A DNA stretch of 9,955 bases from a virus (taxonomy: Duplodnaviria > Heunggongvirae > Uroviricota > Caudoviricetes). The stretch covers positions 1 through 9,955 of IMG/VR virus record IMGVR_UViG_2703718815_000001. One strand, given 5' to 3'. This document shows positions 1,475 through 6,134 of this stretch, piece after piece. Below the pieces are notes generated by a model. The model worked only from the letters and a program-made list of their open reading frames with translations. It did no database searches and was not told where the DNA came from. Made by a program: the position numbers and the translations under genes. The first letter of the stretch is position 1; each line of letters opens with the position of its first letter.

Positions 1475-3955
1475 TTAAAAATCAGCCTGACTCGGGATCA
1501 GTTTTTGTATCGTAGCTGTAACGTATTTTGCCTGGTGACGGGCGTCATCCAGTGCATTGTGGCGCACGCCTTCGAATGGAATAACGGTTCTGGCATCAAA
1601 GTCGATTGTTTTTCCCAGCTCAACGATTGTGCGTACATCGCGATCGTTGTGGTAGCTCCACGGGCAGGGGATGTCCAGACGTTCGTATGAGGTGCGCAAA
1701 ATTGCGTTATCGAAAGTTGCACCATTACCCCATACCTGAACGAATTTTTCATCTGAGTATTCGTTGATGAACTCCCGAAACTGCGAAAGGGCATCCTTCA
1801 GTTTTACCTGGTCTGTTAAAATGGCAGCTCTGGCTTCACTGGACTGCTTCAGCCACCATTCGATGGTTCCACCGTCAGGAACAGCCCCTGTATTCATTGC
1901 GTCAGTCAGACTGATAACGATATAAAATACTGGCCCGATTTCCCCTGTTTGTGGGTCGAAGAAAACCGCACCAATAACCACGATGGGCGCATTGGTGTTG
2001 GTTCCCATTGTTTCAAGGTCGATCATCAGGTGGTACCACACTCTGCTGGTGGATGTGATAACGTGATGACCGTTCACCGCAATTAAGGGATCTGCCGTCT
2101 CGCCAGTTTCATTATCGCTGGCGTGGTCCTGAGCGCTGCCAGCATTCTCCTTGTGTGGATGTTCAGCGCCTTCCATTTCCTCCGGATCATTTTCCTGAAC
2201 TTCAACCTGATTCTCTTCATCGAATGTTTCCTGATATGTTGCGTCGCCCATCACCGCACCACAATCAGGGCAGTTGCCGCCACCGATCTGACCGCAGGCG
2301 GTGCAGACTTTTTCCGCTTCCTGTTGCGCTACCGGTTCGGATTGTTTCGTTTCTGGCTCGTTTTGTAACGCATTTTGGCTGTTTTGTTCCGCTTTCTGGT
2401 TGTTCTGTTCCGTTTCTTGCTGGTTCTGGTTCACAGAATCGCGGGTTTCAATCCCCTTCACCCATTTCGGATCATTCGGGTCGCTAATCCCTGCAACAAA
2501 TTCTCCGCGAGAGGCAGCAAGCAGTTCATTAGCGTCAGGCTGGCTGATATTGGCTGCCTGCATAATTTTGTTTACTTCGTCAGCGGTAACTTTTACCGGC
2601 TCTGGTTGTGCGGTCGTGTCAGATGCACCAGTATTTTGTTGTGAGCCTGAGTATGTACCGTTTTTGCGGGCAAAATATTCTTCTTTCGTGATTTCAGTAG
2701 CCCCTGCAGCCAGCGCCTTATTCAGACCAGAAAGTTTGTTTGCACGACCATATTTTTCGCCATCCTTATCGGTGAAAAGGAAGTAGAACGGCCCCTCACG
2801 CTCTACAGATGGTTCAGTTTCCAGCGTGTTTTCATTTTTTTGGGTATCAGATACTTCAGTTTCCACTGCATCAGTTTGTACTGCTGACGGCTGGAGAATA
2901 TCAGCAGTGTTCTGGTCTGTTTCTTCATCCTCAAACACGCCCTTTGTCGCCAGGTATTCAGTGATGTATTTGTTCAGTGCTACGGGATCTTTGTGAATGT
3001 CGATCGGACGCTCACGGACAAGGCCAAAAATAGTCTGACGGTCGTAGCGAACGGCATCGGGTTGTTTGCGCATAGATGCGGAAATGCGCTTCCAGTCTTC
3101 GCGATCTTTGTCGATAACTTCATTTTTTGCCCAGCGATGGATGCTGCCGTCAATGTTTCCGGCATTAATATCGCCAGGCCACAGAGCGTAGGCCAGTTCT
3201 TCATCCAGCGTTTTCCATGTCTGCTTGTATTCGCGATGAATGGCGGCAGTGGTGGGGTTGATTTTTCCTGCTGAGTTTTCAGTGTGCTGCCGGTTGACTC
3301 TGGCGCGGGCAAGATCAACAACAGACGTGTATTTCCCGGTTTCTTTGCGTTCGGTTTCGCGACGTTTTTTCCAGGTGCGTAATTCTGTCTGGATCTCAGG
3401 CCATTTTGCACCCGGCTTACATTTATGTTTAACCCACCCGATGGCGAGCAGCTTTAGTTCTGAATACATGACGTTAACTTCAGGCATTTTCATCAATGCC
3501 TCAACGATATGCCCGTCGAATGTTGCCATGTCCTCCTGCAACAATTCCTGTGCACTAATCACCATATCAACGGTGATGTTTTCACATGTACCGAACTTAA
3601 CCAGGACCGCGTTCTGTACTTCAAGGGACAGCTTGTCAAAATTGACGTTCATCGGATCGGATTCTGGTTCGACCGGGACAAAGGAAGCGCCTTCCTCATC
3701 CCAGCGGTTTTCCAGCATATATTCGGTATCCCAGGAGTCGATGGCAGGGCGGGGCATGCCGGGTTTATCCTCGCAGACAAGAAATTTATAAGCGCAGTCC
3801 TGAGCAGCCGGATATTGCTCCAGGAATTGCCAGGTAAATTTGGCACGGGCGCGACGTTCGTCGCCGGCTTCAATGGCAGTGGCTACAGCGACTGCACCTT
3901 CTTTCTTTATTGCCTGTTCGTCCGGAATGGCGGCGCAAATAAAGACTTTACTCAT
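1475..3955 (-). CDS. Large multidomain phage exonuclease (often annotated exodeoxyribonuclease VIII-like): N-terminal domain of unknown function, Q/N/E-rich linker, CxxC...CxxC zinc ribbon, C-terminal DEDDh (DnaQ-like) 3'-5' exonuclease domain
   Basis: 826-aa ORF with GAGG 9 nt upstream of the ATG at 3955. The C-terminal ~183 aa carry DEDDh motifs: MIDLET (Exo I), [12 protein letters not shown] (Exo II), [13 protein letters not shown] (Exo III). [16 protein letters not shown] is a 4-Cys ribbon (DNA about 2255-2305). A low-complexity [18 protein letters not shown] linker is encoded by tandem DNA repeats at about 2330-2420. The segment [29 protein letters not shown] resembles my memory of the RecE middle region; the N-terminus resembles what Qin ydfE encodes (recollection). 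Confidence 0.8.
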
Positions 3956-4239: not shown

Positions 4240-4424
4240 TGCCAGTATCCTTTTTGCATCGGGCGTAAACGTGCCAGCATTGAAAGAATGCATATTTTAT
4301 TTAATAGCTCCCGTTCGTGTTTTCTCTTATTAATGGCATCTTCAGTAAATGCAGGGTTACTGATTTTGACACCAATTTCAAAACAACCTTCAGACGTATT
4401 AACGTTTGGTAATAACGTTTCCAT
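4236..4424 (-). CDS. dicB: Cell-division inhibitor DicB homolog, 62 aa
   Basis: From the internal ATG at 4424 (GAGGA 7 nt upstream) the product is METLLPNVNTSEGCFEIGVKISNPAFTEDAINKRKHERELLNKICILSMLARLRPMQKGYWQ. This matches the length and, closely, the sequence of Qin DicB as I recall it. It follows a DicF-like element, as in Qin. Confidence 0.75.
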   Translation of the reverse strand: METLLPNVNTSEGCFEIGVKISNPAFTEDAINKRKHERELLNKICILSMLARLRPMQKGYWQ

Positions 4425-4607
4425 TATCGCGTCCTCAACAATGAATTTTGTGATACGGTGCCTGGTGCCTCCAGGTGACGTTAACCAGTTAACAATTAAC
4501 GCCGGATACAGAGAACCCACCCATAAGAACCAATACGGAAGTCAACTGGCCTTTTTAACTGTTCCGCGTGCGCTGAGCCGCATTCACCGCATCACAAAAT
4601 TCACTTT

Positions 4608-4670
4608 AAAAAGGGCGGGTATCACAAGGGAAAACAAAAAACGGATACCCGCCAAAAGGTAATCAACATG
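4608..4670 (-). ncRNA. dicF: DicF-family small RNA (divergent variant) with intrinsic terminator
   Basis: Minus strand reads ...UGUUGAUUACCUUUUGGCGGGUAUCCGUUUUUUGUUUUCCCUUGUGAUACCCGCCCUUUUUAAAGUGAAUUUUGUGAUG. It has a 10-bp stem (4614-4623 / 4644-4653) followed by a CUUUUU tract. It shares UUUGGCGG...UAUC.GUUUU...CCGCCCUUUUU with K-12 DicF (recollected 53-nt sequence), but the 5' dozen nucleotides differ. It sits between the ydfC-like and dicB-like genes as in Qin. The 5' end is estimated by alignment, not mapped. Confidence 0.55.
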
Positions 4671-4790
4671 GGTTGTTGCAGCGGGGTTGTCACTTAAGCG
4701 TATGGTCAACCTGACAACCCGGTGTCCTCAACGGGGAAGGAATAACCCCGCCATACTTACCGCCGCGCCATTTCGCGGAGTGCCACAACC

Positions 4791-4857
4791 GGAAGCGCAC
4801 AGACGAAGATGTCAGTGGTACACAACAAAGGGAGGAATGACTTCGCTGTGCGCTTCC
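4791..4857 (-). promoter_or_regulatory. Long near-perfect RNA hairpin (12 bp + 1-nt bulge + 5 bp stem, about 32-nt loop) in the untranslated leader upstream of the DicF-like RNA; candidate RNase III processing stem
   Basis: GGAAGCGCACAG-A-CGAAG (4791-4808) pairs with CTTCG-CTGTGCGCTTCC (4841-4857). It lies about 120 nt upstream of the inferred DicF-like 5' end. In K-12 the DicF precursor is cut by RNase III upstream of the mature RNA (established knowledge); the assignment here is inference. Confidence 0.3.
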
Positions 4858-4985
4858 GTGTTATGCCCTGACTTTTCAGGGATATATCCTTTCAGTAAAC
4901 TGCCAGTGCCGGATGCTCACCCGTGTCCGGCGCACGCACTCCACCTCACCCGTGGAGAACTCCTTAATTAACAACCCTCAGGAGG

Positions 4986-5216
4986 GTGATTTTGAACACA
5001 ATAAAAACCACTATTAATAATGATTTATCCCATGATGGAATAAATGCCGAATTAAGAGCCATTAAGCTCGCGATAGCTTTGATGGCAACAAGACTTCCGC
5101 CAGAACTTCGCTCAGATTGTGTAACAGATGCTTTAAAAAGCACAGGTGATAAACATGCCACTGAATTAGCAAACCTGATTCAACAATTCATAGATGAGGC
5201 GAATTCTCAAAACTGA
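4986..5216 (+). CDS. Hypothetical small protein (74-76 aa), AT-rich, opposite orientation to the surrounding operon; no family recognised
   Basis: Perfect AGGAGG at 4980-4985. Start is GTG 4986 (0-nt spacing) or, more plausibly, TTG 4992 (6-nt spacing); there is no in-frame ATG near the start. First codon positions are purine-rich and third positions A/T-rich, consistent with coding in an AT-rich acquired gene. Predicted helical and soluble. No obvious sigma70 promoter seen upstream. Confidence 0.4.
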   Translation: MILNTIKTTINNDLSHDGINAELRAIKLAIALMATRLPPELRSDCVTDALKSTGDKHATELANLIQQFIDEANSQN

Positions 5217-5367
5217 TTGTTATTTCTTTCTGAAAACTTTTACTATCCAGGCATTTTTTTGCTAACCAAATGCGGGCCTCTGTGCCTGCATTGGGCTCCA
5301 GTTCATGTAAGCGTTTTGCATCTTCCAGAAGCAAGGCAATAACGTGTTTAAGTTCTGTTTCATTCAT
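5188..5367 (-). CDS. Hypothetical small protein (59 aa; 63 aa if started at 5379); no family recognised
   Basis: ATG at 5367 with GAGG 6 nt upstream, 15 nt after the ydfC-like stop and co-oriented with the operon. The 3' end overlaps the plus-strand ORF by 29 bp (5188-5216). Product: MNETELKHVIALLLEDAKRLHELEPNAGTEARIWLAKKCLDSKSFQKEITISFENSPHL. Confidence 0.45.
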   Translation of the reverse strand: MNETELKHVIALLLEDAKRLHELEPNAGTEARIWLAKKCLDSKSFQKEITISFENSPHL

Positions 5368-5914: not shown

Positions 5915-6092
5915 GTTGACCTCATTTCCCCTTAACGCCGGGGTAGCGGAACAAAAACCTGCTGCATAGTTAAAGTTGAACCCTGCCGTCATGTTCTTAC
6001 GCCTCGGGCTGGCTACTTAACCCCTGACCACTGCCTGGTAACTCGAAGTATTGCCCTGCATTCTGTGGGGCGGGGTGGGTTGGTATGAGAAA

Positions 6093-6134
6093 ACTATAGG
6101 TAATGCCTAATTGCTTGTCAATAGGCTATGCCTA
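6093..6134 (-). promoter_or_regulatory. Leftward early promoter (pL-like) with overlapping operators (OL)
   Basis: On the minus strand: -35 TTGACA (plus 6116-6121), 17-nt spacer, -10 TATAGT (plus 6093-6098). Operator palindromes TAGGT-AAT-GCCTA (6097-6109) and TAGGC-TAT-GCCTA (6122-6134) overlap the promoter. Confidence 0.5.

Follow-up and report, generated by a model that had tools for sequence, protein, structure and literature searches.

A covarying RNA domain in the leader of a DicF-like small RNA from a Qin/Rac-like prophage

The early-left operon and its untranslated segment

The DNA analysed here, a stretch of 9,955 nucleotides (nt) from the IMG/VR record IMGVR_UViG_2703718815_000001 (hereafter the window), is a Qin/Rac-like lambdoid prophage of Escherichia coli, and this report concerns its untranslated segment at 4654-4985, the minus strand of which carries a covarying RNA domain of about 120 nt, termed R1, next to a DicF-like small RNA. 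Used as a megablast query, positions 4400-5250 are 100% identical to the prophage of E. coli ETEC1746 in RefSeq and match 4727 of 5426 complete E. coli genomes in part. The identical RefSeq record encodes on its minus strand a RacR-type repressor, a DUF1391/ydfA-like gene, ydfB, two hypothetical open reading frames (ORFs) and dicB, the identity of DicB being supported by Pfam PF05358 (E 8e-37), and further genes for a DUF1482 protein, a large exonuclease, a DUF4224 protein and an integrase; the interval from dicB to a small plus-strand ORF carries no annotation. A leftward promoter for the early-left operon (TTGACA...TATAGT) is found near 6080-6120, and gene order and promoter therefore place 4654-4985 within an early-left operon of the dicBF type, on the minus strand.

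The segment is matched by blastn in 4427 of the 5426 genomes, nearly always without annotation, and RefSeq has nothing annotated at the homologous position in 38 of 40 sampled genomes. The match in E. coli K-12 GM4792 (87.2% identity over query positions 22-323, 302 nt) is located between ydfC and dicB of the Qin prophage, and both blastn and side-by-side reading identify window positions 4675-4976 as the counterpart of the K-12 ydfC-dicF intergenic region. The dicBF operon has been described as having an extended untranslated region in which dicF is located (PMC5069750), and the window segment is, as judged from its sequence, such a region.

The minus-strand hairpin UUUGGCGG...CCGCCCUUUUU at 4610-4665 has the design of K-12 DicF. 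It represents a DicF-like small RNA with its intrinsic terminator (GGCGGGUAUC...GAUACCCGCC plus five U residues, hairpin and U-run together covering 4606-4665), as apparent from the sequence and from the minimum free energy (MFE) fold of a 192-nt RNA. DicF of K-12 (UUUCUGGUGACGUUUGGCGG...GCCGCCC) follows directly after the homologous stretch, and the window carries a related but different hairpin, UUGAUUACCUUUUGGCGGGUAUC...GAUACCCGCCCUUUUU, in the same place; going by this comparison, the RNA of the window is a divergent variant of K-12 DicF. The Rfam DicF model (RF00039), which scores 76.7 bits on K-12 DicF and 41 bits on Rac-SA53, gave no match on 4610-4665 at its gathering threshold (48 bits) or at E<=10, and because this threshold is not reached the RNA is termed DicF-like by its position and hairpin design only. 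A preliminary description of the window had taken the segment, on the minus strand, as the leader of a DicF-like RNA; this is right, since it is homologous to the K-12 ydfC-dicF region (87%, 302 nt) and since DicF adjoins the homologous stretch there.

The same description had called the segment GC-rich, dense in hairpins and free of credible ORFs, and all three properties were borne out. The G+C fraction is 0.53-0.60 across 4650-4999 versus 0.36-0.46 in the flanks, and both strands fold better than their dinucleotide shuffles, the minus strand with -137.8 kcal/mol (shuffles -112.2 +/- 6.4, z -4.0, 0 of 100 as good) and the plus strand with -126.3 kcal/mol (z -4.6). The candidate ORFs, one of 94 aa on the plus strand (4687-4971) and short ones on the minus strand, cross a hairpin (P3, see below) that differs by 1, 3, 4 and 5 nt among homologs, and a coding reading was rejected because of these frame-breaking indels and the absence of annotation.

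The R1 domain: structure, covariation and distribution

Three of the stems noticed before are present within R1, namely a 9-bp stem at 4684-4692/4712-4720 (100% complementary by repeat search and reading), CGGGG/CCCCG at 4732-4736/4746-4750 and CCGCG/CGCGG at 4763-4767/4774-4778. The repeat search added a stem that had been missed, 4671-4680/4781-4790, which closes the three small hairpins into one domain. The R1 domain (4673-4791, minus strand) is defined by a covariance model, by pair counts and by MFE folding, and consists of four helices and a pseudoknot: P1 (4782-4789 with 4675-4682), P2 (4774-4778 with 4763-4767), P3 with a variable loop (4746-4750 with 4732-4736) and P4, which is composed of P4a (4712-4720 with 4684-4692) and P4b (4709-4711 with 4697-4699), the helices being those of the covariation model, and the pseudoknot, taken from pair counts, joining UAUGG (4751-4755) to CCAUA (4701-4705). 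The MFE fold of the 192-nt window RNA, which spans the stretch between predicted RNase III cut and terminator, consists of the R1 four-way junction P1-P4 and the terminator hairpin with its U-run.

An alignment of the window with K-12, phage P1 and phage cdtI reveals a near-invariant core of about 105 nt. Among 39 representatives, 94.3% of the cells of P1-P4 and the pseudoknot are paired, with 12 double-change pairs compared with 3.5 +/- 1.3 in shuffled alignments, and the refined model on 73 distinct sequences gives 96.2% paired cells and 15 double-change pairs versus 4.2 +/- 1.5 (0/500 shuffles); when the partners are slid by 1-3 columns as a control, only 34-55% remain paired. The compensatory changes that had been proposed as a check on the structured-RNA reading are thus found in R1, and the covariance model scores 145 bits (E 5e-40) on the window. 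Compensated changes are seen in the closing helix P1 and in P4, where Izhakiella, for instance, has GGGUAACCA/UGGUUACCC, and P3 is swapped among homologs for hairpins of other sequence and length. Four of the pseudoknot pairs are invariant. For the fifth, 68 sequences have U-A, the phage P1 group has C-G and two sequences have U-G, and P7 and its close relative P1 show precisely this difference, U-A versus C-G, at the pair. The pseudoknot was left out of the covariance model, so that its pair count is unbiased. About 40 columns of R1 do not vary from E. coli prophages through Erwinia and Serratia to phage P1, and many of them are unpaired, as in J2/3 (CGGUAAGUAUGGC) and L4 (GGUUGACCAUACGC).

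Other pairings fared less well. An extension of the pseudoknot (UAAG/CUUA) was dropped, as U-to-C changes break it in many sequences, and a long-range pairing of GGGUUGUU (4971-4978) with AACAACCC, which appears in the MFE fold of the whole segment, is not conserved in K-12; an alternative CGGU/ACCG pairing proposed by RNAalifold rests on invariant columns only. Rfam returned no match for R1 or elsewhere in 4654-4985 at the gathering threshold or at E<=10, and control runs for R1 on K-12 and phage P1 gave the same result. ARAGORN found no tRNA or tmRNA in the window, and the helix and loop sizes of R1 do not fit a cloverleaf.

The distal leader module, at 4866-4985 of the minus strand, is a different case. 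It contains a hairpin CCCUG-AAAAGU-CAGGG (4866-4881), the GGAUAUAUCC palindrome (in the DNA GGATATATCC, 4880-4889), a CAGU/ACUG stem, the hairpins GCCGGA/UCCGGC (4908-4913/4926-4931) and CUCCAC/GUGGAG (4939-4944/4952-4957), two copies of the repeat CACGGGUGAG and, at its far end, an ACCCU/AGGGU hairpin that overlaps the Shine-Dalgarno sequence of the adjacent plus-strand ORF. The elements reported earlier for this part are present, except that the direct repeat, given as CTCACCCGTG, has its second copy at 4945-4954 as reported and its first at 4916-4925, one position off the 4917-4926 given. The distal sequence remains conserved among Qin-type prophages, that of K-12 included, in which the stop codon of ydfC precedes it, and its covariation is weak: the helices are 64-98% paired, GCCGGA/UCCGGC and CAGU/ACUG being invariant and the others often broken (64-86%), with few compensated changes. 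The two CACGGGUGAG copies form the deletion endpoints in two related loci (L024 and L135), and a role of the repeat as protein site was discarded, as other lineages carry different sequence in its place and it chiefly indicates such endpoints. The earlier idea of a second structured RNA therefore holds for the hairpins between 4684 and 4778, which form one covarying domain, and fails for the distal stems, where nothing points to an RNA of their own or to protein sites.

The plus-strand ORF itself (4992-5216, plus strand, 74 aa, hypothetical protein) is adjacent to the RNA element without being part of it and is convergent inside the early-left operon. Its product matches PHROG phrog_7249 of unknown function (E 2.7e-19) and no Pfam family, and its Shine-Dalgarno sequence (4974-4987) is embedded in a palindrome, ACCCTCAGGAGGGT. 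A function of the plus strand, either as promoter, operator or structured leader for this ORF or through translation of the 94-aa ORF 4687-4971, would agree with the good folding of that strand (z -4.6), with the overlap between the ACCCU/AGGGU hairpin and the Shine-Dalgarno sequence, and with the ORFs with good Shine-Dalgarno sequences that abut the same junction in many prophages, different and unrelated ones occurring in other prophages. It is nevertheless regarded as highly improbable. Helices P1 and P4b contain frequent U-G and G-U pairs, which on the opposite strand would read as A-C mismatches, and the R1 structure is thereby assigned to the minus strand; K-12 and Tritos keep the whole segment, which there adjoins ydfC and has no plus-strand ORF beside it; no sigma-70-like promoter was found on the plus strand of 4400-4990 at the scan threshold; and the coding variant faces the frame-breaking indels in P3 and the lack of a RefSeq gene. 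Protein-binding sites controlling the plus-strand ORF had also been suggested, of which there is no indication, the module being kept in K-12 as well, which has no such ORF.

Pattern scans located R1 on at least 120 viral contigs and on 16 genome contigs, the genome contigs being labelled as Escherichia, Shigella, Citrobacter, Trabulsiella, Serratia symbiotica, Erwinia tracheiphila, Izhakiella and three non-enterobacterial bins of metagenome-assembled genomes. The latter three (L015, L016 and L019, labelled Bacillota, Veillonella parvula and Collinsella) carry R1 regions of the phage P1 or E. coli prophage type and most likely reflect binning contamination rather than true hosts. The R1 model finds exactly one copy in each of the 79 loci searched, and in all 22 representative loci read downstream the DicF-like terminator hairpin UUUGGCGG...CCGCCCUUUUU follows R1 after 15-50 variable nt. 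The functional phage Tritos shows the order ydfABC-R1-DicF-dicB-ydfD-exonuclease-xis, with DicF annotated, and in Ayreon, cdtI and pPE4 the PL transcript begins with the R1 unit, and kil or other early genes come after it. In phages P1 and P7 the unit begins about 20 nt after the C1-controlled ban promoter (P1ban) and precedes tRNA genes and tciABC; to judge from its position, its primary transcript would be about 185 nt long, the size of the 190-nt species of K-12. The 5' strand of helix P1 is absent in phages P1 and P7, in pPE4 and in two Shigella-type copies, so that the universal core of R1 is P2-P3-P4 with the pseudoknot. Phage vB_Apl-pPE4 (3085-3270) contains a DicF-like unit of the window variant as a tandem duplicate, CCCCGCCACAACAACCCAUG... 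to ...UUUUGUGAU occurring twice; it is labelled as an Actinobacillus phage and has genes for E. coli-type DicA, Kil and exonuclease VIII.

Probable processing of the transcript and possible roles of R1

Upstream of R1, repeat search, MFE folds and homology to K-12 agree on a long bulged hairpin at 4784-4865 of the minus strand, with a perfect 13-bp core (4790-4802/4846-4858). It had been pointed out before as a possible RNase III site, and this proposal gains from the comparison with K-12: on sequence grounds it is the homolog of the site that yields the 190-nt DicF species, the 5' end of which falls into the same 3' arm. This K-12 species is lost without RNase III and accumulates on inactivation of RNase E, which is required for the 53-nt form and makes its 5' end (PMC10448788). 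Its 5' end lies within '...cgucgaccgugcgcuuccgguugugg...' (PMC10448788, text and Fig. S1B), and the sequence with the cut in Fig. S1B starts apically in the hairpin of K-12 and continues through '...cgucgaccgugcgcuuccgguuguggcaacccgcg...' as far as the DicF end (PMC10448788). Counting 190 nt back from the K-12 terminator leads to positions 1617-1621 of the K-12 locus (L004), in the basal part of the hairpin's 3' arm, which correspond to window 4791-4795; the transfer relies on the 190-nt size, the Fig. S1B sequence and the alignment, as the '813/814' numbering of the K-12 cut is not directly mappable. An RNase III cut is thus predicted near 4791-4795 of the 3' arm. The base stem is 90% paired over 41 Qin-type sequences, with one compensated pair, and cdtI-type phages, Citrobacter, Erwinia and Izhakiella have a long hairpin of unrelated sequence in the same position, always with an outer stem of the CAYAAC/GUUGUG type. 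The 3' strand of this outer stem, CAUAAC (4860-4865)/GUUGUG (4784-4789) in the window, is shared with helix P1 of R1.

Two further features were noticed around such hairpins. A motif CCACCUCGCCUGACGUGGUUAAAAGCAGGCACACAAC, absent from the window, comes right after a set of operator-like repeats (TTGTTGTTGGGGA), and the RNase III hairpin begins shortly beyond it, in related loci (for example L034 3440-3480, L103 4652-4681, L009 607-636 and L151 2210-2245); its interleaved stems CCAC/GUGG and GCCUG/CAGGC resemble an H-type pseudoknot, and its exact 30-nt core is present in 23 of the fetched loci. Beyond the DicF-like terminator, phages of the cdtI/Ayreon type have a long inverted repeat, ACAAAACAGAGAAG...CUUCUCUGUUUUGU (phage Ayreon, 3676-3775), which could be an RNase III site on the 3' side, the R1-DicF unit then being bracketed by double-stranded processing sites.

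The observed homology to a DicF-type leader, the covarying structure of R1, its strand and its linkage to a DicF-like terminator can be combined into a scheme in which the segment is the 5' precursor of a DicF-family RNA, excised by RNase III and then trimmed by RNase E, with R1 acting in cis. This is held to be the probable reading, though far from a secure one; the occurrence of the same RNase III and RNase E cuts in this prophage and the role of R1 are inferred. Transcription would start from the repressor-controlled PL-type promoter (6080-6120) and pass through four small ORFs and the antisense strand of the plus-strand ORF. RNase III would cut the long hairpin and release an RNA of about 190 nt, with R1 as its first two-thirds and the DicF-like RNA as its last third, ending at the terminator at about 4606. 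As the GUUGUGG strand is common to the hairpin base and P1, helix P1 can close only after the hairpin is cut or opened; once freed by RNase III, this strand would pair with CUGCAAC. The resulting fold of junction and pseudoknot may bury the new 5' end and present the linker of 4666-4672, which connects R1 to the DicF-like RNA on the minus strand, is unpaired in the MFE fold and varies in sequence and length among homologs. RNase E would be expected to cut at this linker and release the mature short RNA, and the R1 fold would set where and how fast it turns a long stored form into active DicF. R1 most likely serves the long DicF form as an accessory domain at its 5' end, with an effect on maturation or stability. 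A precedent is MicL, a small RNA from a 3' untranslated region (3'-UTR) with structure-directed RNase E processing, as cited in PMC9438474.

Several observations weigh against this scheme. A protective or positioning role leaves the invariant unpaired bases of R1 unexplained, which rather suggest a specific partner. Phages P1 and P7, pPE4 and the two Shigella-type copies lack both helix P1 and the RNase III hairpin, and the strand swap is therefore not universal. In two inducible phages of the Rac type, Rac-SA53 and 666R9, hairpin and DicF-like RNA occur in the absence of R1, and only the last 30 nt of R1 remain in the N-encoding Stx phage POCJ13, so that R1 is not required for DicF biogenesis as such. 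The R1-less junction of the Rac-type phages falls exactly between the two strands of helix P1; such loci, taken with the constant linkage in the others, characterize R1 as an autonomous and optional cassette that depends on a DicF-type RNA, not the reverse.

The invariant bases would fit R1 as a sensor or decoy, either a riboswitch-like aptamer for a small molecule or an element that binds or soaks up a host protein (an RNase, a chaperone or a defence factor, for example), in which case the 190-nt RNA might itself be the functional product, with the DicF-like hairpin serving mainly as terminator and stabiliser. With its four-way junction, its pseudoknot and some 40 invariant columns that include junction and loop positions, R1 has traits typical of RNAs that specifically recognise a ligand or protein; conservation extends over the entire unit of about 190 nt, which is bounded by RNase III hairpins in lambdoid phages and apparently a primary transcript in phage P1, with the part downstream of R1 diverging much faster than R1. 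This possibility is nonetheless considered unlikely: R1 and the terminator have no conserved alternative pairing and thus no expression platform, the linker and the terminator interior are not conserved, no Rfam aptamer was matched, and the gene context yields no candidate ligand or protein. Moreover, R1 was never seen without a DicF-like hairpin in the 22 loci read downstream, which points to a function tied to DicF. An uncatalogued class of phage RNA, spread over many temperate phages of enterobacteria with phage P1 among them and having a riboswitch-like sensor domain or one that binds a factor such as RNA polymerase or an RNase and thereby gates DicF and the read-through into dicB or kil, is viewed with similar scepticism. 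Within the fast-diverging part, five loci (L012 of Serratia, L020 of Trabulsiella, L022 of Erwinia, L023 of Izhakiella and L063) show AGGAG followed by AUGUUCUACCG... inside the DicF-like hairpin, 30-110 nt past R1, a possible tiny ORF that starts in the terminator stem and enters a conserved downstream block.

The position of R1, always directly upstream of a strong intrinsic terminator that early-gene expression must pass, also raises the question of antitermination. As a cis-acting, put-like antitermination or anti-pausing RNA, the nascent domain would bind RNA polymerase and make it read through the DicF terminator and later ones, allowing N-independent expression of dicB or kil, exonuclease, xis and int, and in phage P1 of the tRNAs, tciABC and ban. 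The location of R1 as PL-operon leader just past the repressor gene in Ayreon, cdtI and pPE4, and about 20 nt past P1ban in phage P1, is in line with this, as are the invariant unpaired nucleotides, the R1 stump of the N-encoding POCJ13 and the absence of antiterminator family matches among the small early-left ORFs tested; the phrog_204 protein encoded downstream of R1 in Ayreon, checked as an N-like candidate, has no arginine-rich motif. Such a function still appears quite improbable. The R1 model scores at best 8.5 bits (E 0.66) on the HK022 immunity region with filters off, and put has another architecture, with about 70 nt and two stem-loops (PMC9378689). The N-less inducible phages of the Rac type do without R1, yet have the same hairpin, DicF-like terminator and downstream kil/recE genes. 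R1 of the window is about 1.3 kb away from its promoter and would be severed from the upstream transcript by RNase III, and the K-12 transcript that ends at the DicF terminator is a major species (PMC10448788).

Two observations concern the neighbouring genes. The dicB 5' leader (4392-4615, minus strand) matches Rfam STnc100 below threshold (34.1 bits; the gathering threshold is 47), with similar matches in K-12 (34.4 bits), upstream of kilR in Rac-SA53 (43.8 bits) and upstream of tciA in phage P1 (33.4 bits), which on these scores looks like a second conserved leader RNA ahead of cell-division inhibitor genes. The large exonuclease is encoded by a single ORF of 826 aa in the window (1475-3955, minus strand) and is a frameshifted pseudogene of slightly different span in the identical RefSeq record.

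Significance and comparison with known systems

DicF was among the first bacterial small RNAs described. Faubladier et al. reportedly dealt in 1990 with the K-12 Qin dicBF operon, the untranslated region between ydfC and dicF and the 190-nt DicF species, and to our knowledge this form has been regarded as a mere processing intermediate for more than 30 years. Two-thirds of it form a covariation-supported domain with invariant unpaired bases, which provides a concrete reason to ask for a role of the long form. If R1 represented the uncatalogued RNA class considered above, the long-known 'precursor' would be the real regulatory molecule, and if it controlled maturation of a toxic small RNA or read-through, this would add a new layer to the timing by which prophages arrest host cell division. 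The analysis provides a covariance model, natural controls without R1 in the Rac-type phages, and a natural compensatory pseudoknot pair in phages P1 and P7.

Some likeness exists to the antitermination elements of lambdoid phages. The hairpin CCCUGAAAAGUCAGGG (4866-4881) shares CCCUGAAAA with lambda nutR boxB. It differs from a lambda nut site in having a 6-nt loop instead of a pentaloop, in lacking a boxA on reading and an N-like protein among the ORFs tested, and in being degenerate in K-12 with only weak covariation. R1 and HK022 put are both structured RNAs located ahead of terminators in early operons of N-less lambdoid phages, yet there is no similarity in sequence or model, R1 having about 120 nt with four helices and a pseudoknot and being dispensable in Rac-type phages. 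The MicL-type small RNAs from 3'-UTRs or operons are likewise terminator-ended RNAs matured from a longer transcript with upstream structure beside the cleavage site, from which R1 would differ by its size, its conservation across genera, its invariant unpaired bases and the RNase III step that comes first.

The 'dicF-like region' of phages P1 and P7 (misc_feature, NC_005856) shares the R1 core P2, P3, P4 and pseudoknot at 77-82% identity, followed by a terminator hairpin, and it is likewise under a C1-controlled early promoter, as leader of the ban operon, and upstream of the putative cell-division inhibitors tciABC. Unlike the window, it lacks the RNase III hairpin and the GUUGUGG/CCACAAC closing helix, is apparently a primary-transcript unit, and is followed by tRNA genes. 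The K-12 Qin dicBF operon (Ragunathan et al., 2023, PMC10448788) agrees with the window in the homologous DNA (87% over 302 nt), in the repressor-controlled early-left context, and in the order of hairpin, domain of about 120 nt, DicF with terminator, dicB leader and dicB. The window differs from it by a divergent DicF core that Rfam does not recognise, by an RNase III hairpin whose apical half is different and whose base carries a compensated A-U/G-C change, and by a plus-strand ORF in place of ydfC at the distal end. An exact search for the R1 sequence in the collection of papers covered gave no match and its fold is not described in the DicF literature examined; compared with these systems, locus and processing are known, and it is the R1 domain that appears to be new.

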